From positions 1 through 52,139 of IMG/VR virus record IMGVR_UViG_2541047752_000007: a DNA stretch of 52,139 nt; one strand, written 5' to 3'. Positions 2,552-17,619 of this stretch are shown piece by piece (position 1 is the stretch's first letter; every line of letters starts with the position of its first letter). The stretch comes from a virus (Duplodnaviria > Heunggongvirae > Uroviricota > Caudoviricetes). The notes beneath the pieces are model-generated. The model did not search any database and had not been told where the DNA came from. It was given only the letters and a program-made list of their open reading frames with translations. A program made the position numbers and the translations under genes.

Positions 2552-3973
2552 TTAAAAAGATGCGTTGCTCTGGCTGTTTCGTGGGGAGAATCGACTTGCC
2601 GCCGGACGTTGTTGCATTGACTGAATGCAAGCGGACGCCGCGCGGGCCTGGTTGCATGGGATGATGTTGCCGTTATCGTCAAACCGCTGGTAAACAGTCC
2701 CCGTTTTCCCGTGACGGTTTTTTGAAACGATGATCTCCATATATTCGCGGGCAACCGATTGTTCGTTGTAGTAGCCGTCGCGGTAGACCATGATGATCCG
2801 GTCTGCGTCCTGTTCAAGATTACCGGAATCACGCAGATCAGAATTGTTCGGGCGCTTGTTCGGTCGTTCCTCAACGCGGCGGGATAATTGCGCCAGTGCC
2901 GCCACTGGCACGCGCAACTCTTTCGCCATCATTTTCAATGACCACGACAATTGCCCTACGGCGAGATCATGACGTTCGGCCTTAGCCAGTTTCATTAACC
3001 CGATATAGTCAATCATCACCATCCCCAGGTTAGGATGGTCCTGTTTCATCCGTTCGACGGTGGCGCGTATTTCCTCGACCGTTAACTGCGATGCGTCAAC
3101 AATCCACACATCGAGATCGGCAAGGGCACTCATTCCCTGGGTGACGTGCGCCCAACCTTCGTCATCCAGTTTTACCGGATTACGTAGGCAGTCGGTTGAT
3201 AAATTACCAGCGCCAGCTATAGCGCGTTCAGTCATCTGATCGAGTGACATTTCAAGCGTGAAGAACAAAACGCCAACCCGCTGATCTTTACTGCCAGGGT
3301 AAGGGCGCTCAGCAGCAGCGCGGGCAATCGCCAGCGCCAACGCAGATTTACCAGACCCAGGGCGTCCGGCGAGAAGTACCAAATCAGTAGCGTTAATACC
3401 GCCTAACATTTCGTCGAGCGGTTCTATCCCTGTTTTGATGTTGTCAGAATTGACACCGCATTCCATGCGCTTGCTTAAAACCTCTGTGTATTCCTGTACC
3501 GCATCGCGCAACAGAACAGGAATGATCTTGTCTTTAGTTGCCTTTAATTTTGAATACCGGGAATCAAAATCTTTCATCGTCTCTTTGACGACTTCAAGCG
3601 TCCCCGTTTCCAGCTTGTAGCGCATGTCGTCGATTAGTTCCAACATCTGCCTACGCTGGTGTTCTTCACGTAGTAGCTGTGCGTACCCTTTCAGGTTGGC
3701 AGCAGAAGGGCACGATCGCGCCGTTTGCATCAGCGGAACAAAGTTTTCATTGCCAATCTCATCGCCAACCAATAACGCGTCGATAAGATTCCTGTTTCTG
3801 GCTTGCGCCCGGATAATTTCAAACGCCCGCTTATACAGCGGAATAGTGAACACTTCAGGATCTAGTGTAGCGAGAACATCTTGCGCGTTAGGAGTGAGGC
3901 CGCCTAATAGCAGCCCGCCGATAACTGACGCTTCACGTTCCTGCCGTAGTGAGTTTATTTGCTCAGTTACCAT
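2552..3973 (-). CDS. DnaB-like replicative DNA helicase
   Basis: 473 aa; Walker A GRPGSGKS, IIVSKNRHGKTG and other DnaB C-terminal motifs; GGAGGT RBS; about 30 aa C-terminal extension. Confidence 0.9.
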   Translation of the reverse strand: MVTEQINSLRQEREASVIGGLLLGGLTPNAQDVLATLDPEVFTIPLYKRAFEIIRAQARNRNLIDALLVGDEIGNENFVPLMQTARSCPSAANLKGYAQLLREEHQRRQMLELIDDMRYKLETGTLEVVKETMKDFDSRYSKLKATKDKIIPVLLRDAVQEYTEVLSKRMECGVNSDNIKTGIEPLDEMLGGINATDLVLLAGRPGSGKSALALAIARAAAERPYPGSKDQRVGVLFFTLEMSLDQMTERAIAGAGNLSTDCLRNPVKLDDEGWAHVTQGMSALADLDVWIVDASQLTVEEIRATVERMKQDHPNLGMVMIDYIGLMKLAKAERHDLAVGQLSWSLKMMAKELRVPVAALAQLSRRVEERPNKRPNNSDLRDSGNLEQDADRIIMVYRDGYYNEQSVAREYMEIIVSKNRHGKTGTVYQRFDDNGNIIPCNQARAASACIQSMQQRPAASRFSPRNSQSNASF

Positions 3974-3991: not shown

Positions 3992-5110
3992 TTACAAAAT
4001 GGAATATTCAGGGTAATAAACAAAGCGCCCAATTTCCCCATGATCCGGGCTGTAAATAATCACCGCTGCCAGACGCCGCGACCGCCAGCCGCCATTAGTT
4101 GAATATGCGTCTTTGCCAGCTAATGTGCCGTGGTGCTCAACTATTCCAAGTGATGTTTCAACAACTGATTGATGGTGCAGATGTCCAGTGTGAGCGTAAA
4201 CAGCCACAGACCTCCCGAAATCCTCCCGCCAGTCAGATACGCAAGCCGACAATAAATTTTCCGGCTTTTTGATAGTGTGCCCGTGGTGGTAAGCAAGGAA
4301 TGTTTTGCCGTACTGTGTGTGGTGGACGATAGCAGGGGACACATCAACAGTTACGCGCGGTTCATCTTCGTAAAAAGCCGCCAGCGCCGCACGTAGCCAA
4401 ATCATGCCAGACTGATCGTGATTGCCTGATAGTACCTGGATTTCAATATCCTTATGATTTAACAACATCTTTCCTACCGCCAGACGTACCGCTCGGATCG
4501 CTACATAGACAAGTTTTGCATAGCGTGAATCGCAATCCAGTACGTGATTGCTTGATGGCGTAACTGGCAACAGCCCGTCAGTGTGAAGAACATCCCCACC
4601 GAGAAGCAAAACAGCTTTTTCAGACATCGGCGCAGCGCCCACCGCGTAGTCAAAGAATTCATTCAACACGCGTTCAGCGATCCCAGTGTCGTAGCTCTCG
4701 CCGCATTCAGCTTTATGAGCAAGCGCCCCGATATGCAGATCAAATACCGGATAAAGGGCCAGGCTTTTTTGAAAATCAATTTCAGGCACTGGCACGGCCT
4801 CCGCGCGTGGTATTTCTTCCGTGAATGCGTCGCGGGCAGCTTCCATTAGCCTTTCCATTTCATCACGGTCACGGGCAGTTTTAATCCAGCGCATGACCGT
4901 ATTACCAGCCTTATCGACAAGAACAGATTCACCAGTAATGCCAAAACCAGGCGCGCGACGCGTTGATATTAAACCGCGTTTCGCCAGTTTTGCGCCTAGC
5001 CGCTCGACGTTGCGTTTTGACATGCCATATTTTTCAGCGATCTGCTTGTACGTTAAACCGTTGTTATATTCAGCGATCAATTGCTCATCGCTGATTTTTC
5101 TTTGCGACAT
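3992..5110 (-). CDS. HTH domain fused to calcineurin-like metallophosphoesterase
   Basis: 372 aa; N-terminal LTYKQIAEKYGMSKRNVERL HTH; phosphoesterase motifs FDLHIG, GGDVLHTDG, SGNHD, YHHGH, HTGHLHH. Confidence 0.6.
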   Translation of the reverse strand: MSQRKISDEQLIAEYNNGLTYKQIAEKYGMSKRNVERLGAKLAKRGLISTRRAPGFGITGESVLVDKAGNTVMRWIKTARDRDEMERLMEAARDAFTEEIPRAEAVPVPEIDFQKSLALYPVFDLHIGALAHKAECGESYDTGIAERVLNEFFDYAVGAAPMSEKAVLLLGGDVLHTDGLLPVTPSSNHVLDCDSRYAKLVYVAIRAVRLAVGKMLLNHKDIEIQVLSGNHDQSGMIWLRAALAAFYEDEPRVTVDVSPAIVHHTQYGKTFLAYHHGHTIKKPENLLSACVSDWREDFGRSVAVYAHTGHLHHQSVVETSLGIVEHHGTLAGKDAYSTNGGWRSRRLAAVIIYSPDHGEIGRFVYYPEYSIL

Positions 5111-5866: not shown

Positions 5867-6005
5867 CGCTCCAACTCCTTAAGAACATCATGCGCGCTAC
5901 AACGCAAAAACCCACCGCGACACCCGTTTGCACAGGTTGCAGTGTCTTATTGCGTCAGAGACGCCATCAGGTGGCTAATTTTCGATTTACAGAATGGTAG
6001 GTAGG

Positions 6006-6107
6006 TTATGGATTGATTAGCAGGTACAGACCGCCGAACAAGGCGACGTTAACAGCGATTGCCGCAGCGATGGCAAAAGCCAGGGCGAAAACGTGTTTAC
6101 CGTCCAT
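6006..6107 (-). CDS. small hydrophobic peptide (33 aa, one predicted TM helix)
   Basis: Hand-translated MDGKHVFALAFAIAAAIAVNVALFGGLYLLINP; GAGAGGA RBS about 8 nt upstream; below ORF-track cutoff. Confidence 0.35.
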   Translation of the reverse strand: MDGKHVFALAFAIAAAIAVNVALFGGLYLLINP

Positions 6108-6240
6108 TTTAAAATCCTCTCTGTAACGCTCTATAACGAGCTAATCGCAAAAAGGTAAGCAAGTGTAGCACCACATGCGATTTAGCTCGCTGGTGAGGTT
6201 GTTTTGTGGGTAATTTTGGATTTTTGCGGATCGTGATTGG

Positions 6241-7293
6241 TCAAAGAACGCCAGCGCGCGTATCACGTAGCGTTTTTGGTTTAAGCAGGAAATCAAGTGT
6301 CGCGGTGAAGCCATCGCCGAAGTAAAAATCTGAAGCCGTGTTTTTGAACGTTTCGAAGTAGGCGACAAAGCCGTTAATGCTTTTGTCTTTCAGGTAGTCA
6401 GTGAACGCATAGATCTTGCGTTCAAGATCCCGATCCAGTTCGGCAGGTGGTAACAGGCCGTCAAACGTGCTGTTAAATGCTTCCACCACGTCGGCAGCGT
6501 TTACAGTGGCTGACAGTTTGCGCCATTGTTCAGCATCAGTCAGATACCCATCAAATTTAGTTACCCGGCAAATGTTGATAGGCTTAGGTACTCCACCACG
6601 GCTACGCCATTGGGTTAAAGCCCACTCAATTACTAACGTGATCTCATTCTCCGTATACGCTTTACGTGTTTTTGTTTCTGTCAGTAGTTCTACGAATGGC
6701 TTAGCATCACGACATTTGCATCCTGCCTTGTCGTTGTAGAAGGCAAGGCAACGCAATGCCGCTTCGTTTACGCCATCCTGATTGACCATTTTTTGTTCAT
6801 TTTCGACAATACACGAAGTGTATATATCTTTTTCTCTTTCTTTTTCTACTTCTAATTCTAATTCATGACCCTTTCCTGACCCGGTCATGACCCTATCATG
6901 ACCTTTTTGTGTTGGATTGATTAACTTTTCTAATTTTAATTGCTCCTTCGCTGTGTTTATGGCGGCCCTGTAAGCGCTTTTAGAAGTCATTGATTGGTCC
7001 AGCCTTTTCAATAACTTTAAACAAGTTATGTGGCCTTGAGAACATTCAAACAAACCAATTTCGATGAAGTATTTCATCATTTCTTCTATACGTTTTTCAG
7101 TAGATCCGACGTTTCGAGCAATGATTCTCGCGTCATGTCGTAGGTCAAAAGTCAGATTGTGCTGATCTACGTCATAAGTTATTAGTTCGAGGCAATACCA
7201 ATAAAGCCCGTACCCTTCCAGGCCATAATCTAACAAAACGTTTTGAAGTTTTTCATCGCGGTTCGCATCGCTGTCATGCTTAAACCACTTCAT
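6241..7293 (-). CDS. phage replisome organizer / replication initiation protein (DUF4373-like N-terminus)
   Basis: 350 aa; N-terminus MKWFKHDSDANRDEKL...GLEGYGLYWYCLELI typical of Lin1244-like N-domain; GGAGGG RBS. Confidence 0.6.
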   Translation of the reverse strand: MKWFKHDSDANRDEKLQNVLLDYGLEGYGLYWYCLELITYDVDQHNLTFDLRHDARIIARNVGSTEKRIEEMMKYFIEIGLFECSQGHITCLKLLKRLDQSMTSKSAYRAAINTAKEQLKLEKLINPTQKGHDRVMTGSGKGHELELEVEKEREKDIYTSCIVENEQKMVNQDGVNEAALRCLAFYNDKAGCKCRDAKPFVELLTETKTRKAYTENEITLVIEWALTQWRSRGGVPKPINICRVTKFDGYLTDAEQWRKLSATVNAADVVEAFNSTFDGLLPPAELDRDLERKIYAFTDYLKDKSINGFVAYFETFKNTASDFYFGDGFTATLDFLLKPKTLRDTRAGVL

Positions 7294-7296
7294 AGA

Positions 7297-7554
7297 TCAT
7301 CCCTCCGGCAACATCACTACATAGACATCACTGAATGCATCAAGACGACAAACAAATCCTTTATCCATTAACGCGGCGAAGGCATCATGTACCGTATGAA
7401 CAGGAAGTTCACACATTGCGGCTACTTCTTTGCGTGATGCATCATGTACCCGTCCTTTGTTATCTGCCTTTTCAGCCAGAGCCATTAAGACAAGTTTTTG
7501 AATCGGGCTATTAAGTTTTACGTTCCATGCTTTACTAATCATGTTTATACTCAT
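7297..7554 (-). CDS. winged-helix DNA-binding protein (HTH_36-like)
   Basis: Start moved to ATG 7554 (GGAGA RBS); KLVLMALAEKADNKGRVHDASRKEVAAMCELPVHTVHDAFAALMDKGFV resembles HTH_36; first gene of leftward operon. Confidence 0.5.
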   Translation of the reverse strand: MSINMISKAWNVKLNSPIQKLVLMALAEKADNKGRVHDASRKEVAAMCELPVHTVHDAFAALMDKGFVCRLDAFSDVYVVMLPEG

Positions 7555-7662
7555 CGCATTTTCTCCTATGGTTAGAGTGAACGCGCGGGCGGGCATCCCA
7601 TTAGCATTAGATAGCAGTGACTGACCGCTCAACAGATCCCGCCGTTGCGTGATATTTGTTTT

Positions 7663-7696
7663 TCGCTTCGCAGCGACACCGGATTTTTAAAGAGCA
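7663..7696 (-). promoter_or_regulatory. candidate nut-like site (boxA plus boxB hairpin), leftward operon
   Basis: Minus strand reads TGCTCTTTAAAAATCCGG then hairpin TCGCT-GCGA-AGCGA; resembles remembered lambda nutL CGCTCTTAAAAATTAA plus boxB. Confidence 0.35.
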
Positions 7697-7821
7697 TAAG
7701 GTAAGTGCCTTTTTGTGCCTTCCGTTATCTTTTTCCTTGCGTCTTTGCAAGTATGGCCTTACCTTGTCTGCAAGTTTACAAAATGGAATTTTAAGATCAA
7801 GGCTTAAAATACACGTTTTGT

Positions 7822-7850
7822 GACTTGCATCAAACTTTTTGAGGTTATAG
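7822..7850 (+). promoter_or_regulatory. weak PRM-like promoter for the repressor gene, possibly leaderless mRNA
   Basis: GTGACT-N18-TTATAG ending about 9 nt before the cI ATG at 7860; no SD upstream of ATG. Confidence 0.3.
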
Positions 7851-7859
7851 GGTAGCGAC

Positions 7860-8507
7860 ATGAAAACAAAATGGTATGACTTAGCAAAGCAGCTCATGCG
7901 GGCGCAGGGCATGAGCCAGGATTCGCTCGCGGATCGTATGGGGATAACTAAAGGCGGCCTGTCACACTGGCTGAACGGTCGCCGAGAGCCAAATCTTGAA
8001 GATATTGCGCGGATTATGCGCGAGCTTGGTCGTCGGCAGTTTACTGTTACACATGATGGCATGGTCATTGATGATTCTGTTTCTAATACACTTCAGGCCG
8101 TGCCGCCGCGTGATTTAGGTAGTTACCCGGTTATTGACTGGAAGGACACAGTAAACAATATGGATGACGCAAGGCGTTCAGCATTACGACACGTTACGAC
8201 TAGCGTTATTTGTTCAGATGACAGTTACTGGCTGGTTGCCAAAGGTGAATCAATGAACGCGCCGCAGGGGTTGAGCATCCCGGCGGGGACGATGATACTT
8301 GTGGACCCGCACGCGCCAGCTATTGACGGCAAACTGGTTATAGCCCAGCTTGAGGAAGGGCAGATACCGACGTTTAAACAGTTGATTATTGATGGAGGTC
8401 AAAGGCTTTTACGTTCGCTCAATCCGCTGTATCCGCCAATCCCTATGAATCCAGAATCAAAAATTATAGGCGTGGTGGTTGATGCGAAGATCGTAAACCT
8501 GCCATAA
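7860..8507 (+). CDS. CI-like phage repressor (HTH_XRE plus S24 LexA-like peptidase)
   Basis: 215 aa; N-terminal HTH MSQDSLADRMGITKGGLSHWLNGRR; C-terminal GESM (Ser) and VVDAK (Lys) autocleavage dyad. Confidence 0.85.
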   Translation: MKTKWYDLAKQLMRAQGMSQDSLADRMGITKGGLSHWLNGRREPNLEDIARIMRELGRRQFTVTHDGMVIDDSVSNTLQAVPPRDLGSYPVIDWKDTVNNMDDARRSALRHVTTSVICSDDSYWLVAKGESMNAPQGLSIPAGTMILVDPHAPAIDGKLVIAQLEEGQIPTFKQLIIDGGQRLLRSLNPLYPPIPMNPESKIIGVVVDAKIVNLP

Positions 8508-8512
8508 ACATT

Positions 8513-8538
8513 AGCCGCCGAATGGCGGCTTTTCTTTG
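8513..8538 (+). terminator. rho-independent terminator after repressor gene
   Basis: agccgcc-gaat-ggcggct stem-loop followed by tttctttg. Confidence 0.5.
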
Positions 8539-8630
8539 CCTGGAAAACACCAAAACGTAAACAGAAAACGTTATTTATTATTTAAATATCAATGGCATAT
8601 AAAATATTTTAAAAAAGTATACAAAATGGA

Positions 8631-8659
8631 TTGACTCGATGTTTTACGGGGCGTATATT
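8631..8659 (+). promoter_or_regulatory. strong sigma70-like promoter (pL-like) for rightward early operon
   Basis: TTGACT-N17-TATATT; immediately preceded by the recurring tatacaaaatgga motif. Confidence 0.55.
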
Positions 8660-8701
8660 GCGAGTCAAAGGAAGGGCGCAGGTAACAAAAGCAACTTCCT
8701 G

Positions 8702-8718
8702 GCACTTTAAAAATCAGG
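8702..8718 (+). promoter_or_regulatory. candidate boxA-like element in 340-nt leader
   Basis: GGCACTTTAAAAATCAGG shares CTTTAAAAATC with the minus-strand boxA-like site at 7679-7696. Confidence 0.3.
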
Positions 8719-9007
8719 CTTAACACCTTGTCAACCGTGGAGTAACTCCCCGATGGGGGACCGAAAGCGGCACTGATAACAAGGCGCATGGGGTGTTTAA
8801 AGCGTTACATCCCCCACGAAACCGCACGCAAGGCGACGAGTCAGCTTGCTTGGAGTGAGCAAGGTCACGCCGGGAACGGCGATGATTGCGGGATTAGTTG
8901 AAAGATGTTAAGCCGCTCATTAACAATCTGGTCAGCCGCTGGAAGTGCGGCAATTAACGAAGATGATTTTTTATTAAGTATCATCAAGGATATACGGAGA
9001 TCAGATT

Positions 9008-9298
9008 ATGAGCGTTACAATTATATATGGTAAATGTGATAGCAAAATGAATGCCAGGGAACGCAGAAGGATAAAAAGAGAAAACGAAAGAAAATCATCA
9101 CCTGCAATCAATAAAACAGACAATGTGGATAAAGCTATTCGATTTGCAAACGAGGAAAGATGCAAACCAAATAGCATTAAAGAACGTCGCAAAGGATCAG
9201 TAAAATGGTATACGGAAAATGAAAGCGGCAGCTACTACCACGCAACGCAACCACGCCATTTAGGGGAAAAACCCCTGGATAAAGTCCGCTACCATTAA
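9008..9298 (+). CDS. basic protein with arginine-rich N-terminal motif, possible N-like antiterminator
   Basis: 96 aa; NARERRRIKRENERK resembles an arginine-rich RNA-binding motif; first gene after promoter and long leader. Confidence 0.35.
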   Translation: MSVTIIYGKCDSKMNARERRRIKRENERKSSPAINKTDNVDKAIRFANEERCKPNSIKERRKGSVKWYTENESGSYYHATQPRHLGEKPLDKVRYH

Positions 9299-9328
9299 TA
9301 CAAAATGTAAACATCCGGAGATGACATT

Positions 9329-9451
9329 ATGGTTATTCAGGCGCTTCAATTCAAACTGGCAGTAGCGGAAATGCTTCACGATGCCGAAATGTGGAGCGCC
9401 GCGAATAAAGCCTTATACATAGTGTTAACAGCACGGGAGATTAAATGGTGA
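9329..9451 (+). CDS. hypothetical small protein (40 aa)
   Basis: Hand-translated MVIQALQFKLAVAEMLHDAEMWSAANKALYIVLTAREIKW; GGAG RBS; stop overlaps erf start. Confidence 0.3.
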   Translation: MVIQALQFKLAVAEMLHDAEMWSAANKALYIVLTAREIKW

Positions 9452-10089
9452 AAACAGAGTTACATAAAAAGCTATGGACGATTCAGCAAACGCTGAACGC
9501 GCCGAAAAATCAGCGTAATAATTTTGGTGGATATAATTACAGGTCGGCGGAGGATATTTTAGAGGCGGTTAAACCACTGCTTCAAAATATCACGCTGACT
9601 GTTAGTGATGAAATTGTCCTGATCGGCAATCGCTATTATGTGAAAGCAACGGCGACGCTAAGCGACGGTGAAGACGTAATAGCGGTAACTGCTTATGCCA
9701 GGGAGGAAGAAAACAAGAAGGGTATGGACGCCAGCCAGCTAACAGGAGCAACATCAAGTTACGCGCGTAAATATGCTTTGAACGGTTTATTCTGTATAGA
9801 TGATGCTCGCGATCCTGATACTGATGCTTACGCGAAGCAGACAGGCCAGCAGCCGCGACAACAGAAAAACCCACCAAAACAACAACCGCAGCAGAAGAAA
9901 GCGCCGCCAAATCCTGATGAAGTATTAGCACGTTTCTGTGATGCAGCAGCGAAAGCGCAGGACGCTAACAAGCTGCGTGAAATATTTGGCAAATGCTGGA
10001 AATTACTACCGGAAGGATCGGAACATCGAATCAAGGCAAAAGATGTTTATGACATCCGGGTCGCAGAGCTTAACGGGGAGATGGGTTAA
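9445..10089 (+). CDS. erf: ERF-family single-strand annealing protein
   Basis: 214 aa; NFGGYNYRSAEDILEAVKPLL and overall ERF-like pattern; followed directly by ssb. Confidence 0.8.
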   Translation: MVKTELHKKLWTIQQTLNAPKNQRNNFGGYNYRSAEDILEAVKPLLQNITLTVSDEIVLIGNRYYVKATATLSDGEDVIAVTAYAREEENKKGMDASQLTGATSSYARKYALNGLFCIDDARDPDTDAYAKQTGQQPRQQKNPPKQQPQQKKAPPNPDEVLARFCDAAAKAQDANKLREIFGKCWKLLPEGSEHRIKAKDVYDIRVAELNGEMG

Positions 10090-10508
10090 TGAGTTTGAAT
10101 TCAATTACGCTGGGCGGGAATATCGGAAACGACATGGAAGTTCGCTACACGCAAAACGGTAAAGCGATTGGTAGTTTTCCGTTAGCTGTAACGAATGGCT
10201 ACGGTGATAACAAGCGGACAATGTGGATCACTTGCCTGGTATTTGGTGAGCGTGCGGAAAAATTAGCGCCACATATCCGCAAGGGTGGAAAAATAGTGGT
10301 AAGCGGTCGCCTGGATGTTCGGCAATATGACCGGAACGACGGCACGAAGGGGACTGCGGTAGAAGTGGCGGTTAATGAATTTGAATTCATGAATGTTAAC
10401 CAACAAGGCCAGCAGCAAGGACAGCAGCAGAAAGCGCCGCCGCAGCAGCAGAATAATAACGGGAATAATCCGCCTCCGATGGACTTCGACGACGATATTC
10501 CTTTTTAG
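10089..10508 (+). CDS. ssb: single-stranded DNA-binding protein
   Basis: 139 aa; OB-fold N-terminus, Gln/Gly-rich linker, acidic tail DFDDDIPF. Confidence 0.9.
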   Translation: MSLNSITLGGNIGNDMEVRYTQNGKAIGSFPLAVTNGYGDNKRTMWITCLVFGERAEKLAPHIRKGGKIVVSGRLDVRQYDRNDGTKGTAVEVAVNEFEFMNVNQQGQQQGQQQKAPPQQQNNNGNNPPPMDFDDDIPF

Positions 10509-10524
10509 AATCAATGTGTTAGCG

Positions 10525-10803
10525 ATGAGTGATTATCTAAAACCGCCACCGCAACCACGAACAAAAGAGCAAGTATTAAAAGAAGCCCGCGATCAAATCG
10601 ATCGCGGGCTTTTTTTATGCGGCACGGCAGCGGATCGAATGGCGAAAAGATTTAGTGACCTGTACGCGAAGCAAATCTGGTTTGACAACTGGCGAGCGAG
10701 TTCTTACCCGCTACAGAAAACTGATGATATGCAGTGGCCTGAATATGTTGATCCACGAATGCGCAAATATCGCGGGCGTATGGGCAAGGTTATTAACGAT
10801 TAA
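10525..10803 (+). CDS. hypothetical protein (ORF spans a terminator-like hairpin)
   Basis: ORF-track frame 10393-10803 with first ATG at 10525; contains hairpin 10585-10617. Confidence 0.35.
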   Translation: MSDYLKPPPQPRTKEQVLKEARDQIDRGLFLCGTAADRMAKRFSDLYAKQIWFDNWRASSYPLQKTDDMQWPEYVDPRMRKYRGRMGKVIND

Positions 10804-10815
10804 TGAGGTATTACC

Positions 10816-11067
10816 ATGACAGCTACAACATTAAGCGAAAATAACGGGCGCGGTTTTCAGGGGACTGCGGAAACCTCAGACGATGGTGATGTATTTGTCG
10901 AATTCGGTGGCGGTAACTATGAATTCGAAACGTCGGCGGGCTGGCACGATAAATGGCCTTTCCCGACGCGCAAGGAATTAAGCGAACGTAAATCATTTGG
11001 CGAAGATGCCGAACGGCTGGCTAATAACAAATGGCTTGATAAGTTCATTGCGGAGGGTGGCAAATGA
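10816..11067 (+). CDS. hypothetical protein
   Basis: 83 aa acidic ORF. Confidence 0.4.
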   Translation: MTATTLSENNGRGFQGTAETSDDGDVFVEFGGGNYEFETSAGWHDKWPFPTRKELSERKSFGEDAERLANNKWLDKFIAEGGK

Positions 11068-11171
11068 AAAAGATTGCAATGTTATCCGCCGCCGTTGCTG
11101 TGGCGGCTGTTTACCTTAGTGCGTCACTCTATATCACTGTGGCGATTGTTAAGCTGATTACTGACATGTGA
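11064..11171 (+). CDS. small single-TM peptide (35 aa)
   Basis: MKKIAMLSAAVAVAAVYLSASLYITVAIVKLITDM; GGAGGGTGG RBS; ATGA overlap with upstream stop. Confidence 0.4.
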   Translation: MKKIAMLSAAVAVAAVYLSASLYITVAIVKLITDM

Positions 11172-11178
11172 GGTTTAT

Positions 11179-11295
11179 ATGCGAGTCGACAAAAATACTG
11201 TCAAGGCTGTTTTCTGTGTGGTCGCTTTCGTCTTCATGGTGGTAATAGCTGGCGCGACTGCGGCAATTATTAGCTATATCGGCGGGGTGATGTGA
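11179..11295 (+). CDS. small single-TM peptide (38 aa)
   Basis: MRVDKNTVKAVFCVVAFVFMVVIAGATAAIISYIGGVM; GAGG RBS. Confidence 0.4.
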   Translation: MRVDKNTVKAVFCVVAFVFMVVIAGATAAIISYIGGVM

Positions 11296-11567
11296 TGCCA
11301 TTCATGAATATCAAAACGGGTGATCTGGTCGTGCTCCCGGAATACCGTAAAGACCCTGGTCTGGTTGTGCTGAATAAGACATATAACGATCTTGAGCGTC
11401 CGATCCTGGTTAAATATCTGGACGGAACAATTATAGAGCCGCGCTTCTTTGACAAGATCGAACTGAAGGCCCGTAATGTTCGCGTTAAGCCGTTCCGGGC
11501 TTATGTTGAAGACCACTGGCGGAAATTGTTCGCCGGACTGAATGGGATGTTCGGCGTATGGCTATAA
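11295..11567 (+). CDS. hypothetical protein
   Basis: 90 aa ORF, ATG at 11295. Confidence 0.4.
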   Translation: MPFMNIKTGDLVVLPEYRKDPGLVVLNKTYNDLERPILVKYLDGTIIEPRFFDKIELKARNVRVKPFRAYVEDHWRKLFAGLNGMFGVWL

Positions 11568-11749
11568 AATTGGTAAAAGTTAAAGATTTAAAAGGCGGCG
11601 AAAAGATCCGTACGTGGTATGGGTATAAATTTATCATAGCTGCCTTTTCTTTTGGGCCTGGTGGTCAGGTAACATTATTTGACGAGGAAGATGATGAGGT
11701 GGGTCAATGGCATCTTGAACAATATGTTGAGGTGTTAAATGAAAATTAA
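11558..11749 (+). CDS. hypothetical protein
   Basis: 63 aa ORF. Confidence 0.35.
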   Translation: MAIKLVKVKDLKGGEKIRTWYGYKFIIAAFSFGPGGQVTLFDEEDDEVGQWHLEQYVEVLNEN

Positions 11750-12071
11750 ATTCCATAAAGCATATGATAGCGAAACAAACAAGCTATCACTATTTATCGA
11801 ATTCGAACGCCGGATCGTGGTTGTGCCCTGGGCGCGGCGCTTCAATGACGCTGGCGGACGTAGACAATTCGCGGTCGATATGCTGTTACGCGGCTGCGGC
11901 CTTATGCGTCCGCTATCTGATTTAAAACGAATGATGCCGGGATCGTTCGGTCAGATTGATGAAATAGAAATAAGCCCGGAAGAACTGAAACGGGAGCGTG
12001 ATTTATTCCTTTCAAGCGAAGGAAACCCGTTTAATTCAGAAACTGAAATGAAATGGCATCACCCACTATAA
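11739..12071 (+). CDS. hypothetical protein
   Basis: 110 aa ORF. Confidence 0.4.
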   Translation: MKIKFHKAYDSETNKLSLFIEFERRIVVVPWARRFNDAGGRRQFAVDMLLRGCGLMRPLSDLKRMMPGSFGQIDEIEISPEELKRERDLFLSSEGNPFNSETEMKWHHPL

Positions 12072-12084
12072 AAGGATAAATATC

Positions 12085-12705
12085 ATGAACGACATCAAAA
12101 CAGCTTACTCTCTCGGTAATGAAGGTATGTTGATCACTCGCTATACAGATGATGCAAACTTTCACGAAGTGGAAATTAAAGATTATCACGAAGTATTGAA
12201 AGATATGGAAGCTGGCGCGTATGACGCTGATTTGAATCTGGCGCTACAGGTTGTTGATATTGTGATGGGTGCGTCAATCCGCGATTACGTGTCTTTAAGT
12301 ATGGAAGAAAAAACATCGGTAGCGCGTTATGTATTCTCTCTTACTTTTGTGAAGCGCATGGAGGAAGAATTCGGACGCGTACCAGTGCCGGAAGAGGTTG
12401 ATCCGCTCGCGTTCGGAAGTGCTGTCATTTTCCCGTTGAACAAGGAACAGCTTGGTAGTGTTTCACTGCATCCTATGCGCGGCCTGATGAAAAATATCTT
12501 TGAGGTTAAGATGTTGCAGAAATGCATTGAGGAAGGCCACAAAGAGGAAGAAGTAAAAGCGCTCATGCCATTGTTTTACGGTGAAATGGTTGGCAATGAT
12601 ATGCGTGCAAATGATTTCGGCGTACGGGCGGCTATCGCTGTGCTTAATGACGCACGGAAAAACGCACAGCCGACGCCTGAACAGGGAAAACGTGTACTGC
12701 ATTAA
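12085..12705 (+). CDS. hypothetical protein
   Basis: 206 aa ORF, no recognised motif. Confidence 0.45.
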   Translation: MNDIKTAYSLGNEGMLITRYTDDANFHEVEIKDYHEVLKDMEAGAYDADLNLALQVVDIVMGASIRDYVSLSMEEKTSVARYVFSLTFVKRMEEEFGRVPVPEEVDPLAFGSAVIFPLNKEQLGSVSLHPMRGLMKNIFEVKMLQKCIEEGHKEEEVKALMPLFYGEMVGNDMRANDFGVRAAIAVLNDARKNAQPTPEQGKRVLH

Positions 12706-12804
12706 CCGAGTAATTCCGATCACATAAATATACATTTTGTATTGTGATTGTATATCCGTTTTGTAAGCCGAAATCAAAAGGTTTACGGTGCGGAGGAAGC
12801 AAAA

Positions 12805-13023
12805 ATGGAACGCGAATTGATGCTTTATTGCGTAGAAGGTGGCGTAGGTCACGATGCCTACGTCGCCGGGAAAGACTATCCAGCCGATGAAGTGCTTTCT
12901 AATATGCACTTCAGAGAAAATGAAAGCCAGGTGTCTGTGTGGAAACGGTGTATTGATGGTATTGAGGTTGTAAGTATCGAACGGTATTTAGGCACGTTTG
13001 ATTACGGTGTTATTGAGGCTTAA
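12805..13023 (+). CDS. hypothetical protein
   Basis: ORF-track frame 12748-13023, ATG MERELML at 12805. Confidence 0.35.
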   Translation: MERELMLYCVEGGVGHDAYVAGKDYPADEVLSNMHFRENESQVSVWKRCIDGIEVVSIERYLGTFDYGVIEA

Positions 13024-13025
13024 TT

Positions 13026-13118
13026 ATGGACGATACATTGTTTTATATGTGCTGTTTCTGGGGTTTTATTGCCTTATACCTGTTTATCAGGTGGTTTATT
13101 GAATACCATATGAGGTAA
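13026..13118 (+). CDS. small hydrophobic peptide (30 aa)
   Basis: MDDTLFYMCCFWGFIALYLFIRWFIEYHMR; GAGG RBS 8 nt upstream. Confidence 0.35.
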   Translation: MDDTLFYMCCFWGFIALYLFIRWFIEYHMR

Positions 13119-13121
13119 TGT

Positions 13122-13316
13122 ATGGAACAAGAAACTGATTATCGAATACCTGATAGCCTAAAATTAGTTGGCATTGGTTTCGGGTGTAGATTTGTATCTG
13201 ACGCAAAAGGAGCGATTTATTTAATACGTCTTATTGATGGCGTTCAACATATAAGGAGATTAGGAATTTACATCAAAGCATTCAGAAGAGGTTATTTAAA
13301 AACTCATGAAATTTAA
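13122..13316 (+). CDS. hypothetical protein
   Basis: 64 aa ORF. Confidence 0.35.
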   Translation: MEQETDYRIPDSLKLVGIGFGCRFVSDAKGAIYLIRLIDGVQHIRRLGIYIKAFRRGYLKTHEI

Positions 13317-13509
13317 ACATTACATGGAATGGAAAATTCCAGAAGCAGCAACAAAGGCAGCGCCAGGAAATTTTTCTGGCGTTTATTTTTATATGGATGG
13401 CAAATGGTATTTCGGCAGCAGGCCGGATCACTACTATCAAGAAATATGCAAGCCTCACGTATGGGATATTAAAGAGCGCGTGAAAGGCGGGGTAATTGAG
13501 GACGTTTAA
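13306..13509 (+). CDS. hypothetical protein
   Basis: 67 aa ORF. Confidence 0.35.
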   Translation: MKFKHYMEWKIPEAATKAAPGNFSGVYFYMDGKWYFGSRPDHYYQEICKPHVWDIKERVKGGVIEDV

Positions 13510-13510
13510 A

Positions 13511-13747
13511 ATGCTTAAGAGCTTTTTTAACTGGTTGGGGGTGTGGCTTTTGGCTACGCTTTTTGTTTTCCTGGCGGCCCTGACTGTTATCGGTGTTATT
13601 ATGCTGGGTGCTATGTTTATTACGTGGTCGCTTCCTGAATTTAACGACATTGGGAATATTCTTTTTGCAGCCCGCGCTTTATTGGCTGTTAGCGCATTCA
13701 TTGGTTTTTGCTGGACTGCCGCGCCGGATTGGACTGACACATGGTGA
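13511..13747 (+). CDS. small membrane protein (two predicted TM helices)
   Basis: MLKSFFNWLGVWLLATLFVFLAALTVIGVIMLGAMFITW...; GAGGA RBS. Confidence 0.4.
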   Translation: MLKSFFNWLGVWLLATLFVFLAALTVIGVIMLGAMFITWSLPEFNDIGNILFAARALLAVSAFIGFCWTAAPDWTDTW

Positions 13748-13751
13748 TCCT

Positions 13752-13985
13752 ATGGCCTTATTCAATATGTCAGAGCCGCAATTTAACGCCGTAAAGACTG
13801 CCGCCCGCGCCGCGCTTTCGGCCTGCAAAGCGGAGGTAGAGAAGAACGGCTACAGCGATAAAGCCACGCGGCTGATATTAGATAAGCATTATCGCAAGGT
13901 CGCCCCGCTAATCAGTATTGAGCGTTTTGTGTGGTTGGTGGGGTATCTGAATAACCGCTGGGGAACAGATCAGGATTATTTCTAA
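13752..13985 (+). CDS. hypothetical protein
   Basis: 77 aa, MALFNMSEP start. Confidence 0.35.
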   Translation: MALFNMSEPQFNAVKTAARAALSACKAEVEKNGYSDKATRLILDKHYRKVAPLISIERFVWLVGYLNNRWGTDQDYF

Positions 13986-13994
13986 GGGGGCGTA

Positions 13995-14534
13995 ATGAAA
14001 AATGATTACGGCGGCAGCCATACGCCGAAAGAAATAAAGGACTTATGGCAAACGCCAAAACCCGTTTTTAGAGGAATGGATCGGGAATTCGAGTTCGTCG
14101 CGGATGTGGCGGCAAACAAGGAAAACGCATTAATCCCGAGATATATAACCGAAGAAATGGACACGCTCCATTATCCGTGGGGAGCGGTGGCGATGCCTGG
14201 TGAGTATGTCTGGATGAATCCGCCATATTCTAATCCGGGACCATTCGTTGATAAGGCGGCGCTTGAACATCAACGAAATCACATTGGCTGTGTAATGCTA
14301 TTGCCCGCTGACATTTCTGTTAGCTGGTTTATGAACGGCGTGGAGACGGCAAACGAATGCCGATTAATCACGCGCGGGCGGCTGGCGTTTATCAATGCTG
14401 CAACAGGGAAACCAGTAAGCGGGAACAATAAGGGGAGCTTGTTCTTGATCTGGCATCCACGATGCAGACATGAATGTATTTTCACGCAGATAACACGTAA
14501 AGAGCTATATGCAAGAGGTGCAGATAATGACTAA
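13995..14534 (+). CDS. dam: phage-type DNA N6-adenine methyltransferase (Dam family)
   Basis: 179 aa; LWQTPKPVF N-terminus and catalytic NPPYS motif. Confidence 0.8.
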   Translation: MKNDYGGSHTPKEIKDLWQTPKPVFRGMDREFEFVADVAANKENALIPRYITEEMDTLHYPWGAVAMPGEYVWMNPPYSNPGPFVDKAALEHQRNHIGCVMLLPADISVSWFMNGVETANECRLITRGRLAFINAATGKPVSGNNKGSLFLIWHPRCRHECIFTQITRKELYARGADND

Positions 14535-14859
14535 GGCAGCAGATTTATTGAGACTTGCAGCGGAAACCATAGAGCAAAGAGGTAAACAAAACGGCTACGA
14601 CAAAAAAGAGGAAAAATCAGCGCCAAAAATAGCCACTATTTACAACGCTAAGAAGGGAGCAGATTTAACCCCGCTTGATGTATGGGATCTGCTAATTTGT
14701 CTCAAGGAGGCGCGTTTAGAGGCCATTTTAAGCAATAAATCAGATCCGACAGACACGCTAATTGATTTGATTAGCTATAACGCGCTAAAAGCGGAGCAAA
14801 TATTAACGGAGCGGGAGGAAGCCCAAAGAAAGAAACGGGCTGTTTTGATATACCGTTAA
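14527..14859 (+). CDS. hypothetical protein
   Basis: 110 aa from ATG 14527 (GAGGTG RBS). Confidence 0.4.
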   Translation: MTKAADLLRLAAETIEQRGKQNGYDKKEEKSAPKIATIYNAKKGADLTPLDVWDLLICLKEARLEAILSNKSDPTDTLIDLISYNALKAEQILTEREEAQRKKRAVLIYR

Positions 14860-14925
14860 ATTGCGGCTGTAAGAATGCCTCAATACCAGGCGACTTAATC
14901 GCCAGCAGCAAGGTAACGCTAAATA

Positions 14926-15501
14926 GTGTCCTTGCAAACAGGCTTGATGGTAAGTGTGATAACGAATCACTACTACGCGCGGCGGGGTATCATAAAAATG
15001 GAAAGGGTGACAATTGACAGGTTATTGGCCTGCATTTATGTCGCCGTTTTCGTGATCATTAACCTTATTGTTAACCACTGCGGCCCGTGGGTAATTCCGA
15101 TCACCACGGTAGCCGCCGTGTGCGTCAATATGATGATCCGTGACTTCCTGTTATATGACGGCGGCCTGAAATGGTCGGCTACAACATGCGCCGCCGCTGG
15201 CGCAATCACGGTGCTGATAAACTACGATGCCGGGATGGTGGCGATCGCGTCATTCGTCGCGGTTGTTTCCGGTGCGCTTATTTCTGGCGGTGTTTACCGG
15301 ATTTTACCTGGCGATTTCGATTCAAAACGCTGGCCTGCGAATATAGCGTCCGCCATTGGTGATGCGTTAATTTTTCCCACGCTATCGTTTATGGCATTTA
15401 TGCCGGAAATATCAGCTATGCAATTCATCTCAAAAATGGCGGCTGTAACGGTGATCACTATCATCATTCGTCGCTATTTTACGTTCGAGGGTAGGAAATG
15501 A
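14926..15501 (+). CDS. integral membrane protein (4-5 predicted TM helices)
   Basis: Hydrophobic segments throughout; likely start ATG 14998 (MERVTIDRLL). Confidence 0.5.
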   Translation: MSLQTGLMVSVITNHYYARRGIIKMERVTIDRLLACIYVAVFVIINLIVNHCGPWVIPITTVAAVCVNMMIRDFLLYDGGLKWSATTCAAAGAITVLINYDAGMVAIASFVAVVSGALISGGVYRILPGDFDSKRWPANIASAIGDALIFPTLSFMAFMPEISAMQFISKMAAVTVITIIIRRYFTFEGRK

Positions 15502-16262
15502 GTGGGCTTAGAAATTGGGTGGTGTGGTCGCTGTACGACGGCAGCGGGTACGCCGTTAAAGATTGGGCCGACGCTGGCTATAAGTGTTATTGTTTCAATT
15601 ATGACGGCGCTAATCATGGCGATTATGAAGGCGTCAAGATCATTCATCCTAACATTGAATATGTCAACGTATGGATTGACAGCCATTTCCTGGTAATGTT
15701 CTCCCCTGAATTGTCTGTTTATCCAGATCCTGACATTATCCTGGGCTTTCCTCCGTGCGACGATCTTGCGGTGTCCGGCGCTCGTTGGTTTTCAAGCAAG
15801 CGTGAAAAAGATCCTTACTTCCAGCAGAAGGCGGCATACAACGCAAAACTGGTAGAAACGCTTGCTGACATGTACCACGTCCCGTGGATGGTGGAAAACC
15901 CGGTTGGAGCACTGTCAACGTTATGGCGTAAGCCGGATTTCATTTTTAATCCGTGCGCTTACGGTGGCTACCTGCCGGAAGATGATAAGCATCCAGCTTT
16001 CCCGGAATACATCGCCGACCGCGACGCCTACACGAAGAAAACTTGTATCTGGTGCGGCAACGGATTTAAACAGCCGCTATTTCGGCCTGTACCAATGCCT
16101 GATGAGTGGGAAGATAGTAAGCAGCACGCGAAGTTAGGCGGGAAGTCGAAGCGCACTAAGATGATCCGCTCACTCACGCCGCGAGGATTCGCCCGTGCTG
16201 TATTCCTGGCTAATGACCGGGCAATCACGCGGACTACTCTTAACCGCGTTTTACCGGATTGA
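15498..16262 (+). CDS. compact DNA cytosine-5 methyltransferase-like protein
   Basis: 254 aa; motif I-like SLYDGSGY, PC motif GFPPCDDLAVSG, ENV motif WMVENPVG; no obvious target-recognition domain. Confidence 0.5.
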   Translation: MSGLRNWVVWSLYDGSGYAVKDWADAGYKCYCFNYDGANHGDYEGVKIIHPNIEYVNVWIDSHFLVMFSPELSVYPDPDIILGFPPCDDLAVSGARWFSSKREKDPYFQQKAAYNAKLVETLADMYHVPWMVENPVGALSTLWRKPDFIFNPCAYGGYLPEDDKHPAFPEYIADRDAYTKKTCIWCGNGFKQPLFRPVPMPDEWEDSKQHAKLGGKSKRTKMIRSLTPRGFARAVFLANDRAITRTTLNRVLPD

Positions 16263-16422
16263 TGTTTACAAAATGGCGTCATTGTGTGATGTGGATCACA
16301 TAATGGCGCTTTATTGTTTGTTCGCATGTATCCGTTTTGTATACTTCAAACAAACAAAATGCTCTTTAAAAATCCGGTAACGCTGAAATGCGTAAAAATC
16401 ACCTGAAAAAGGAGAGAGCATT

Positions 16423-16599
16423 ATGTCTTTTGAGAATTACCAATGGCATGACGACTATGAACGGGAAAGTGTCATGCGTGCAATGTGCAGTGTATGCAGC
16501 ACGAAGAAGGGAGAATGTAACGAGTGCAACGAATGCGTAGATCGCTTGCTAAGGGCTGGACACGCCGAAAGGCTGAACGAAACAGAGAATCAAGAATAA
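16423..16599 (+). CDS. small cysteine-rich protein (58 aa)
   Basis: MSFENYQWHDDYERESVMRAMCSVCSTKKGECNECNECVDRLLRAGHAERLNETENQE; below ORF-track cutoff. Confidence 0.3.
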   Translation: MSFENYQWHDDYERESVMRAMCSVCSTKKGECNECNECVDRLLRAGHAERLNETENQE

Positions 16600-16613
16600 T
16601 CGGGGTGGTTTTT

Positions 16614-17219
16614 ATGCAAAACCCTAAGAAACCAATAAGACGCCGTTGCAAATGCTGCGGCGTTTTTTTTGAGCCTAAATATCACAACCAGACGTGGTGC
16701 AGTGAAGAATGTCTGGAAGAACTGAAATTTGATCAGCTATGCCGCGACCGTGAAAAGGCAATGAAGGCGATGGAACGGAAGAAACGCCGTGACAGCCAGC
16801 GCGAGGAACGAAACCGGAAGCGGAAACAGTTAAATCCGCGCAGCTACTGGATCAAGCAAGTTCAAAATGTATTTAACGCCTATATCCGCGAACGTGACGC
16901 GCGGTTGCCGTGCATATCCTGCGGGACTTACTACGGTGAGCAATGCGGGTGGGATGCCGGACACTATAGGACGGTTGCCGCTGCCGGACACCTTCGCTTT
17001 AACGAAGATAATTGCCATAAACAATGTAGACACTGCAACCAGACGTTAGACGGCAACATCGGAGGTTATCGCCCGGCACTGATTAGAAAAATCGGCCTCG
17101 CCAGGGTGGTAGCACTGGAGAACAACAACGATACGCACAAATGGACGATCGCAGAATGTAAGGAGCTAATAAACATCTACCAGGCGAAATTGGACGCCTT
17201 AAGGAGAAAGGCAGCATGA
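16614..17219 (+). CDS. ninG: NinG/Rap recombination protein
   Basis: Start at MQNPKK; RRCKCCGVFFEP, PRSYWIKQ, LPCISCG, WDAGHYR, LRFNE, HKQC align with remembered lambda NinG. Confidence 0.8.
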   Translation: MQNPKKPIRRRCKCCGVFFEPKYHNQTWCSEECLEELKFDQLCRDREKAMKAMERKKRRDSQREERNRKRKQLNPRSYWIKQVQNVFNAYIRERDARLPCISCGTYYGEQCGWDAGHYRTVAAAGHLRFNEDNCHKQCRHCNQTLDGNIGGYRPALIRKIGLARVVALENNNDTHKWTIAECKELINIYQAKLDALRRKAA

Positions 17220-17617: not shown

Positions 17618-17619
17618 CA

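Follow-up and report, generated by a model that had tools for sequence, protein, structure and literature searches.

The region described here lies in a prophage of the mEpimmI coliphage group, to which mEp021, mEp010 and MagusPhagus belong. The whole stretch of DNA that was analysed (the window; 52,139 nucleotides, IMG/VR record IMGVR_UViG_2541047752_000007) shares 90-96% nucleotide identity with seven members of this group. Over 7560-9010 it is 100% identical to a prophage of E. coli M15, and for mEp021, mEp010 and mEp515 the identity across the region amounts to 90-93%. On the plus strand a CI-type repressor gene (7860-8507), the counterpart of Rep021/gp15 by annotation, encodes HTH_3 and Peptidase_S24 domains (Pfam, E=1.5e-12 and 5.8e-19). 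It is followed by an intrinsic terminator (8513-8537, plus strand; AGCCGCCGAATGGCGGCT then TTTTCTT), which corresponds to mEp021 TERM_1, and by a predicted rightward early promoter (TTGACT-17-TATATT, 8631-8659, plus strand). The promoter is conserved in all relatives, including the distant relative L079 described below, and the motif TACAAAATGG lies directly upstream of it (8620-8629). On the minus strand the first leftward gene (7297-7572) encodes a small HTH protein, assigned as the counterpart of mEp021 gp14 from the ORF list, the mEp021 annotation and weak Pfam HTH matches, and the replication gene (6241-7293) comes next. The sequences, the promoter and the 96-aa ORF named in a preliminary description of this DNA are all present in the window, apart from slips in position and spacing.

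The first plus-strand gene (9008-9298) encodes a protein of 96 aa, which is identified by orthology and family alignment as Gp17, an N-like antiterminator. It is 93% identical to Gp17 of mEp021 and 100% identical to a MagusPhagus protein annotated as 'anti-termination protein N-like protein', and the earlier view of a basic protein with an N-type arginine-rich motif is thereby borne out. The motif NARERRRIKRENERK comprises residues 15-29 of the ORF product and carries R17, R19, R20, R21 and R24. The family alignment shows no variation at N15, A16, R17, R20 or R24 and at least 90% conservation of R19 and R21. R17, R19, R20 and R24 are also the conserved arginines given in the paper on the mEp021 group (PMC11893012). 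An alternative start at M14 was rejected because the orthologues have leucine at residue 14.

In Pfam scans Gp17 did not reach the gathering threshold of any N family (PF25694 N_peptide, 15.9 bits vs a cut-off of 27.9), and PF11438 (N36) was not matched. The N_peptide family, that of P22 gp24 (N), was matched by 14 of the 16 Gp17-family members in the same region as in the window protein (best E=4.8e-4), with all scores below the gathering threshold. Lambda N itself gave 0.013 on this model. With hhalign the N-terminus and the arginine-rich motif of Gp17 align with P22 N (E=0.003; VTIIYGKCDSKMNARERRRIKR vs TVITYGKSTFAGNAKTRRHERRRK) and the two share a D-x-V-x-KAI motif, but their C-terminal halves are unrelated. 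No similarity was detectable in the hhalign comparison with lambda N, which belongs to PF11438 (probability 2%). Gp17 gave only chance matches in a PDB sequence search, and tblastn against 50,697 phage records returned the seven group members and no others. A word-indexed protein search yielded 31 close clusters, and a scan of the GTDB species-representative genomes contained no relatives. A search with the family profile, run exhaustively over 1.84 billion representative proteins, yielded one further true distant relative, P0033 (E=4.6e-8), and no P22-type N proteins. Another candidate, P0032, was rejected as it consists of four partial stretches inside an unrelated 3778-aa repeat protein.

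On the leftward side the site nutL (7663-7696, minus strand) was defined by sequence and conservation. It consists of boxA TGCTCTTTAAAAA (7696-7684), which is rrn-type, the spacer TCCGGTG and boxB UCGC-UGCGAA-GCGA (7676-7663); an alternative reading of the latter is a 5-bp stem capped by the GNRA tetraloop GCGA. The boxA-like element and hairpin that had been reported here are thus present, but the reverse complement of 7663-7696 reads TGCTCTTTAAAAATCCGG-TG-TCGCT-GCGA-AGCGA and the gap after the 18-mer is 2 nt instead of the 6 nt given before. The 40 related loci that extend this far all have nutL at the same position, with very little change, and this position fits the published description, which puts nutL upstream of the repressor gene. 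A consensus scan detected no leftward promoter upstream of nutL. Between nutL and the first leftward gene lies a conserved leader hairpin (7588-7643, minus strand) with the arms GGCGGGAU (7643-7636) and AUGCCCGCC (7596-7588). The leftward leader is almost invariant among 24 distinct sequences, and one locus (L040) shows a compensatory G-C to U-A change in this hairpin.

For the rightward leader the preliminary description had placed the nut site at 8702-8718. A boxA-like sequence, GGCACTTTAAAAATCAGG, does occur at this place (8701-8718, plus strand; one base off the earlier position), where it makes up the 5' edge of a leader insert and repeats the proximal boxA, with divergence, in direct orientation. 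However, it is not the conserved rightward nut site. No boxB-type hairpin follows within 30 nt, and conservation among relatives, which holds for nutL, extends for 8701-8718 only to genomes with the long leader. It is missing from 10 of 42 IMG/VR relatives, from 4 of 35 E. coli prophages and from three of the seven isolated phages. The conserved boxA and boxB, absent from the preliminary description, are instead found about 200 bases downstream as nutR1 (8914-8951, plus strand), with boxA CGCTCATTAACAA (8914-8926), spacer TCTGGTCA and boxB GCCGC-UGGAAGU-GCGGC (8935-8951). nutR1 is present in every relative about 60-90 nt upstream of gp17, with either leader type. Its boxB stem covaries between alleles, and the gp17 alleles are co-inherited with matching nutR1 boxB variants. 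The proximal boxA of the window is one position off the GCUCUUUA core (GCUCAUUA). An alternative nutR1 hairpin, CUGGU-CAGCC-GCUGG, was rejected; it shows no covariation, includes three G.U pairs and differs from the minimum-free-energy fold.

The two rightward boxA copies flank the structured insert of about 200 nt (8716-8914, plus strand), which is closed by a 9-bp stem (GGCUUAACA/UGUUAAGCC) that brings the insert ends together in the predicted fold (z=-3.5). The insert is conserved to 97.8-100%, vs about 91% identity in the flanks, and is absent from about a quarter of the relatives, visible as an indel in the alignment. It contains a covarying hairpin (8845-8863) and a further internal hairpin (8869-8880, GCCG-GGAA-CGGC), and compensatory changes were found in L050/L072. 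There was no Rfam match to the insert. Over 6000-20000 and 7540-9010, Rfam searches with permissive E-value limits likewise returned nothing relevant, the sole match with E<0.01 being a Thr_leader terminator hairpin (10527-10618). A repetitive or mobile element was rejected as explanation, since the insert occurs once per genome and is confined to the mEpimmI phage group.

This arrangement would allow for a split site, in which the distal sequence at 8701-8718 serves as the working rightward boxA of long-leader genomes, the folded insert brings it near the boxB at 8935-8951 and the proximal boxA is a decaying copy. The distal copy lies at about +35 from the predicted start, roughly the place of the true boxA in short-leader genomes, and the closing stem would juxtapose the insert ends. 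In addition, the proximal boxA of long-leader genomes has five variants, mostly off the GCTCTTTA core, and the distal copy is nearly invariant. However, the distal copy is off-consensus as well (GCACUUUA), its invariance may merely reflect the near-clonal state of the whole insert, and it has no boxB nearby. Furthermore, mEp013, mEp044 and mEp554, the isolated phages that lack both the distal copy and the insert, are all viable members of a group that is Nus-dependent according to PMC11893012, and the same paper places the published nutR1 upstream of gp17 and describes it as the nut site with the most variation, which fits the proximal site. We therefore regard a split site as unlikely and take the contiguous nutR1 at 8914-8951 as the rightward site.

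A third site, nutR2 (16360-16393, plus strand), has boxA TGCTCTTTAAAAA (16360-16372), spacer TCCGGTA and boxB ACGC-UGAAAU-GCGU (16380-16393). All related loci that extend to this position have it, as does mEp021, and one base pair of its stem varies among the loci (A-U, G.U or C-G). nutR2 lies upstream of nin-like genes and a Q-family gene, and downstream of a cytosine methyltransferase ORF (15498-16262) and a terminator-like hairpin (16275-16310, plus strand; counterpart of mEp021 TERM_4), an arrangement that is the same in mEp021. This site did not appear in the preliminary description. The Q-like gene listed there at 17802 was recovered as a late antiterminator gene of the Q family (17802-18530, plus strand; Pfam PF03589 Antiterm, E=1.4e-30, 105.7 bits vs a gathering threshold of 26.7). 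A strong intrinsic terminator (AAGCCCGCGATC...GATCGCGGGCTT then T7; 10583-10618, plus strand) is located 3' of the ssb gene and is a likely target of read-through; its hairpin accounts for the partial Rfam Thr_leader match.

An 11-mer, CTTTAAAAATC, that nutL, the distal boxA-like sequence and nutR2 have in common occurs as three exact copies in the window (7682-7692, minus strand; 8705-8715 and 16364-16374, plus strand), vs 0.13 expected, and none of 100 shuffles reached three copies. All of them lie between genes, on the strand that is transcribed locally. With one mismatch allowed there was no enrichment (4 matches vs 2.2 expected). In the boxB helix 98% of the cells are paired and 3 of 5 pairs show compensatory changes; the covariation score was reached by none of 500 shuffles, and slid controls were low. 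The stems covary across sites, across alleles and in one distant relative (L079, included in the extended set), and at each site the covarying hairpin lies at a fixed distance 3' of boxA and carries a conserved U-GNRA-N loop. The folding energies of the individual boxB hairpins were no better than those of shuffled sequence (z -0.2 to -0.8). The distant relative is the contig that encodes P0033. It has the same gene order (repressor, Gp17-like, ERF, SSB) and two sites of the same grammar, with GCTCTTTAACAA, a short stem and a UGAAAA loop. The nut grammar of rrn-type boxA, short GC stem and U-GNRA-N loop thus extends to a distant Gp17 relative. The boxA core GCTCTTTAACAA of L079 and of the short-leader nutR1 is identical to the E. 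coli rrn consensus.

Taken together, the region is a lambda-N-like early antitermination system, composed of Gp17 and nut RNA sites, that has already been published for mEp021-type mEpimmI coliphages. The closest known system is the Gp17-nut system of mEp021/mEpimmI (Valencia-Toxqui et al. 2023, Arch Virol 168:92; Negrete-Mendez et al. 2025, PMC11893012). According to the latter, which also relays the 2023 experiments, Gp17 of mEp021 is an early N-lambda-like antiterminator by experiment and acts on nutL upstream of the repressor gene, on nutR1 and on nutR2, the last located downstream of the methyltransferase gene. In the window, and likewise in more than 40 relatives, the three boxA and boxB sites stand at the published nut positions, the match to the published nutL, nutR1 and nutR2 being by description of position only. 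Gp17 is orthologous, with the same conserved arginines and, by description, the same three nut positions, and the neighbours are also alike (repressor, ERF, SSB, methyltransferase, NinF/NinG and Q). The differences are allelic only: the stem-foot base pair of nutR2 is A-U in the window vs G.U in mEp021, and residue 14 of Gp17 is M in the window vs L in mEp021. The preliminary proposal of N-type antitermination, in which the first gene product is arginine-rich and both early leaders carry nut sites, together with a Q-type late system, is therefore supported by the published orthologues at 93% identity, and the comparative data agree with it. As the region is explained as a previously characterised switch, it need not count as new. 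Covariation in the comparative data is an independent line of support for the published nut sites, and the prophage map is corrected in that the rightward nut lies at 8914-8951 and a third site at 16360-16393.

In this mEpimmI-group prophage the region very probably is the early regulatory switch and operates in the manner of lambda N. Antitermination activity of Gp17, its reliance on three nut sites and the Nus dependence are carried over from the literature on mEp021 and its group. From the predicted promoter at 8631-8659, a leader RNA carrying nutR1 and then gp17 would be made. The arginine-rich motif of Gp17 (residues 15-29) would bind the boxB of nutR1, nutL and nutR2 through putative protein-RNA contacts, and the adjacent rrn-type boxA (GCUCUUUAA) would recruit host NusB/S10 together with NusA and NusG. 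The complex would render RNA polymerase resistant to downstream terminators, the presumed ones being for example 10583-10618 and 16275-16310. In this scheme nutL would act on the replication operon, which runs leftward, and nutR2 ahead of the nin-like genes and Q. Transcription could then proceed into the genes for replication and recombination and, in the end, into the Q-family late antiterminator gene.

Like Gp17, lambda N is small and basic, its arginine-rich motif lies near the N-terminus and its sites consist of boxA followed by boxB. As in lambda, the sites of the window would lie on early transcripts and would require host Nus factors, and the system would lead on to a Q-type late antiterminator. 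The local order of repressor gene, terminator, promoter, nut and N gene is also shared. In contrast, lambda has two nut sites vs three in the Gp17 system. The boxB of the Gp17 system has a 4-5 bp stem and a 6-7-nt loop of the form U-GNRA-N, whereas lambda has a GAAAA/GAAGA pentaloop (lambda nutL, CGCTCTTAAAAATTAA-GCCCTGAAGAAGGGC). Unlike that of lambda, the boxA of the Gp17 system is the full rrn-type GCTCTTTAA. The window phage is non-lambdoid and, unlike in lambda, its replication genes are on the operon opposite the N-like gene.

The boxA sequences are closer to the E. coli rrn consensus, TGCTCTTTAACAA, than lambda boxA is, and Gp17 has no above-threshold family assignment. Both would be compatible with antitermination of the host-only rrn type, acting through boxA and Nus factors/SuhB, with the 96-aa protein otherwise employed, for instance as a nucleic-acid chaperone or as a regulator of recombination genes. 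We consider this very improbable. The rrn boxA system of E. coli (NusB/S10, NusA, NusG, SuhB) needs neither a phage protein nor a boxB-binding arginine-rich peptide. Here, a covarying hairpin with the U-GNRA-N loop follows every boxA at a fixed distance, gp17 alleles travel with matching nutR1 boxB variants and the distant homologue retains the same pairing of protein and sites. In addition, the published experiments, as given in PMC11893012, credit early antitermination to Gp17 and its arginine-rich motif. A coincidence, with the AT-rich 11-mers and small hairpins arising by chance in intergenic phage DNA, as the one-mismatch count and the shuffle-like folding of the hairpins might suggest, has a negligible probability and is effectively refuted by the comparative data, given the excess of exact copies, positions conserved in more than 40 genomes, compensatory stem changes and the same arrangement in a distant relative.

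Within this Gp17-nut switch the leader insert is possibly the sole new item. The 2025 paper on the mEp021 group (PMC11893012) mentions neither the long/short leader polymorphism nor the structured insert. Tentatively, the insert at 8716-8914, with its diverged boxA copy on either side, could be a structured RNA module with a cis-regulatory role that is so far undescribed. Such a module may adjust how much Gp17 is made or how nut sites assemble, for example by serving as an RNase III-type processing site, as in the lambda N leader, by offering a boxB-like hairpin as decoy or by forming part of a split nut site. The leader polymorphism could affect the control of Gp17 expression, and if the insert is such a module, genomes with and without it would represent two regulatory variants of one antitermination switch. 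A 37-aa ORF inside the insert (8788-8901), the counterpart of mEp021 gp16, is doubtful because it is absent from the short-leader phages and its substitutions are radical yet keep the RNA pairing.

Positions 7300-9500 share 90-96% identity with the mEpimmI coliphages mEp021, mEp010, mEp013, mEp044, mEp515, mEp554 and MagusPhagus. Within this region 7560-9010 shows 100% identity to the E. coli M15 prophage, and this stretch is carried by 35 of 5,426 complete E. coli genomes. The first plus-strand gene (9008-9298), for which the preliminary description had suggested an N-like function, encodes a basic protein of 96 aa with the arginine-rich motif NARERRRIKRENERK at residues 15-29. It occupies the position of mEp021_17, with 93% protein identity, and is 100% identical to a MagusPhagus protein annotated as 'anti-termination protein N-like protein'. 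PMC11893012 (citing Valencia-Toxqui et al. 2023, Arch Virol 168:92) describes Gp17 as an N-lambda-like protein to which early antitermination in mEp021 is due, gives R17, R19, R20 and R24 as fully conserved, and states that the phage group depends on host Nus factors. The window orthologue contains R17, R19, R20, R21 and R24. It also describes three sites on which Gp17 acts. Of these, nutL and nutR1 are upstream of the repressor gene and of gp17, respectively, nutR2 is downstream of the methyltransferase gene, and nutR1 is the most variable; they were equated with sites in the window solely by position and description. The N-like assignment is thus supported, and the Gp17/nut antitermination system of the window is already known.

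All sequences quoted in the preliminary description, i.e., the minus-strand element, the plus-strand boxA-like sequence and the arginine-rich ORF, are present in the window. The minus-strand element of the early leader (7663-7696, reverse complement TGCTCTTTAAAAATCCGG-TG-TCGCT-GCGA-AGCGA), proposed as a nut site, corresponds to nutL and consists of boxA TGCTCTTTAAAAA, a 7-nt spacer and the boxB UCGC-UGCGAA-GCGA. The 11-mer CTTTAAAAATC is shared by both early leaders, as had been noticed, but a third copy at 16364-16374 had been overlooked; exactly three copies are found in 52 kb (0.13 expected), a number reached by 0 of 100 shuffles. This third copy belongs to nutR2 (16360-16393, plus strand, TGCTCTTTAAAAATCCGGTA-ACGC-UGAAAU-GCGU), which is flanked on one side by a terminator-like hairpin at 16275-16310 that corresponds to mEp021 TERM_4 and on the other by NinF/NinG/RusA-like genes and Q.

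On the plus strand the boxA-like sequence GGCACTTTAAAAATCAGG is indeed present at 8701-8718, downstream of the promoter TTGACT-17-TATATT (8631-8659), but it is not followed by a boxB-type hairpin. The rightward leaders of mEp021 and of 42 IMG/VR loci found with Gp17 were aligned and fall into two types. In short leaders (~274 nt between the repressor terminator and the ATG of gp17) the promoter-proximal region is directly joined to TGCTCTTTAACAATC-TGGTCA-GCCGC-UGGAAGU-GCGGC, in which the rrn-consensus boxA TGCTCTTTAACAATC precedes a GC stem of 5 bp. Long leaders (~487 nt), among them those of the window and mEp021, contain an extra ~200 nt that starts with GGCACTTTAAAAATCAGG and stops just 5' of a slightly degenerate boxA copy, in the window CGCTCATTAACAA (8914-8926), with the boxB at 8935-8951 unchanged. 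The proximal boxA and boxB are present in every relative aligned, whereas 10 of the 42 IMG/VR loci and 4 of 35 E. coli prophages lack the distal element, as do the isolated phages mEp013, mEp044 and mEp554. Because the proximal site is universal and the distal one is missing from some relatives and without boxB, the conserved rightward nut site is 8914-8951 and not 8701-8718. The earlier map is usefully corrected in two respects: nutR1 lies elsewhere, and there is a third site, nutR2. In one relative (metagenome contig OQVL01004386.1) all similarity is lost halfway through the loop of the nutR1 boxB, beyond GCCGCTGGAAG, suggesting that recombination or a deletion had its breakpoint at the nut site.

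Individual boxB hairpins fold no better than shuffled sequence, and their support comes from comparison. In an alignment of 13 distinct nut variants 98% of the stem cells are paired, with compensatory changes in 3 of 5 pairs (UCGC/GCGA, ACGC/GCGU, CCGC/GCGG, GCAC/GUGC, GCUAC/GUAGC, GCCGC/GCGGC). The covariation score was reached by 0 of 500 shuffles, and pairing collapses when, as a control, the 3' partner is shifted by 1-3 columns. The loop keeps the form U-G-N-R-A-N (UGAAAU, UGCGAA, UGGAAGU). In addition, gp17 alleles travel with matching nutR1 variants, NARERRRIKRENERK with the loop UGGAAGU and NAR(K/A)RRRMKRAAEQ with UGAAAU, while nutL and nutR2 are the same for both. The second allele (loci L050/L072, proteins P0020-P0025) is characterized by the motif NARKRRRMKRAAEQ and comes with a nutR1 boxB of its own, GCUAC-UGAAAU-GUAGC. 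P0020 combines an N-terminal half from this allele with a C-terminal half from the window allele, indicating recombination within gp17.

In the proposed mechanism, the 8631 promoter would transcribe nutR1 and gp17 once the repressor is lost, the arginine-rich motif of Gp17 would bind the boxB hairpins, and boxA would recruit NusB/S10, along with NusA and NusG. The modified polymerase could then pass terminators, e.g., 10583-10618 (after ssb) and 16275-16310, and nutR2 would reload or reinforce the complex before it reaches the nin-like genes and the Q-family gene. The latter (17802-18530) matches PF03589 (E=1.4e-30), in support of the earlier interpretation that N-type and Q-type antitermination occur together. 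On the other strand nutL would serve the HTH/replication operon. A consensus scan detected no leftward promoter; TTGCAA-15-GATAAC at about 7750-7725 (minus strand), picked out only by inspection, is a weak candidate. The terminator 10583-10618 is a very strong, symmetric, intrinsic and possibly bidirectional one, and partially matches the Rfam family Thr_leader (32 bits, below the gathering score of 55).

The insert of long leaders (8716-8914, ~200 nt) is a minor lead that may be novel. Within the mEpimmI group, 31 of 35 E. coli prophages and 4 of 7 isolated phages carry it and the others do not. It is confined to this group, with one copy per genome, and has diverged boxA direct repeats on both sides. 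Identity between phages is 97.8-100% in the insert but ~91% in its flanks. No Rfam match was obtained for the insert; its predicted fold is a closed multi-branch structure (8660-9010: -115.7 kcal/mol, z=-3.5). The hairpin 8845-8863 changes from CUUGCU-UGGAGUG-AGCAAG to AUCACU-UGGAUUG-AGUGGU in L050/L072 by three double compensatory changes; elsewhere in the insert variation is too low for a covariation test. A 37-aa ORF (8788-8901), hypothetical gp16 of mEp021, is absent from short-leader phages and undergoes radical changes at the hairpin positions (Q to W, G to C). As RNA pairing is kept where these substitutions occur, an RNA constraint fits better than a protein one, and the ORF is probably not a gene. 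Neither gp16 nor the leader polymorphism is mentioned in PMC11893012. The insert may control Gp17 synthesis through processing, as happens in the lambda N leader, serve as a decoy or additional site for Gp17, or form a split nut site together with the distal boxA.

Judged from database searches, the Gp17 family is narrow. It comprises 31 clusters at 90% identity in a collection of 5.8 billion proteins, to which a profile search against 1.84 billion representatives contributed only P0033 (115 aa, E=4.6e-8) as a genuine distant member; no relatives were found in GTDB species-representative genomes. In L079, the metagenome contig that encodes P0033, the genes are arranged as in the window (divergent HTH gene, CI-type repressor, Gp17-like gene, ERF, SSB), and there are two nut-like sites (at 3530-3560 and 4738-4775). 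One of them, GGCTCTTTAACAAAATGGA-ACGC-UGAAAA-GCG, is found upstream of the Gp17-like gene, the other, CGCTCTTTAACAATCTGG-AUUGC-UGAAAA-GCAAU, in the leftward operon. The leftward site follows a cro-like gene, as lambda nutR does, instead of preceding the first gene. This arrangement indicates that the pairing of the Gp17 family with the nut grammar is older than the mEpimmI group. The mode of action resembles lambda N/nut, as published experiments support, whereas hhalign detected no similarity between Gp17 and lambda N (probability 2%). In hhalign the N-terminus and arginine-rich motif of Gp17 align with those of P22 N (E=0.003, probability 10.6%). PF25694 (N_peptide), which models the P22 gp24 family, is matched by 14 of 16 Gp17-family members (best E=4.8e-4), all below threshold; lambda N scores no better (E=0.013). 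Since the match of the window protein is also below threshold (15.9 vs 27.9 bits), Gp17 was not assigned to these Pfam N families. At sequence level it is at most a remote relative of P22-type N proteins.

Further motifs were also observed. The motif TACAAAATGG occurs in five exact copies (0.19 expected in the window), at 3993-4002, 7777-7786, 8620-8629 and 16267-16276 on the plus strand and 37229-37238 on the minus strand. One of them directly adjoins the -35 of the rightward early promoter, a second is located between repressor and nutL in the divergent region, and a third ~95 nt upstream of nutR2. In L079, too, the motif is found immediately 5' of the promoter's -35. The motif may be an operator or an element associated with promoters. 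Relatives hardly differ in the 130 nt from nutL to the first leftward gene, where a long-range stem GGCGGGAU...AUGCCCGCC at 7588-7643 (minus strand), in which the related locus L040 has one compensatory change of G-C to U-A, may represent a second structured leader. Repeated CTTGCA/TGCAAG-type inverted repeats in the repressor-nutL divergent region (7700-7830), e.g., CTTGCAAAGACGCAAG and CTTGCAGACAAG, look like repressor operators.
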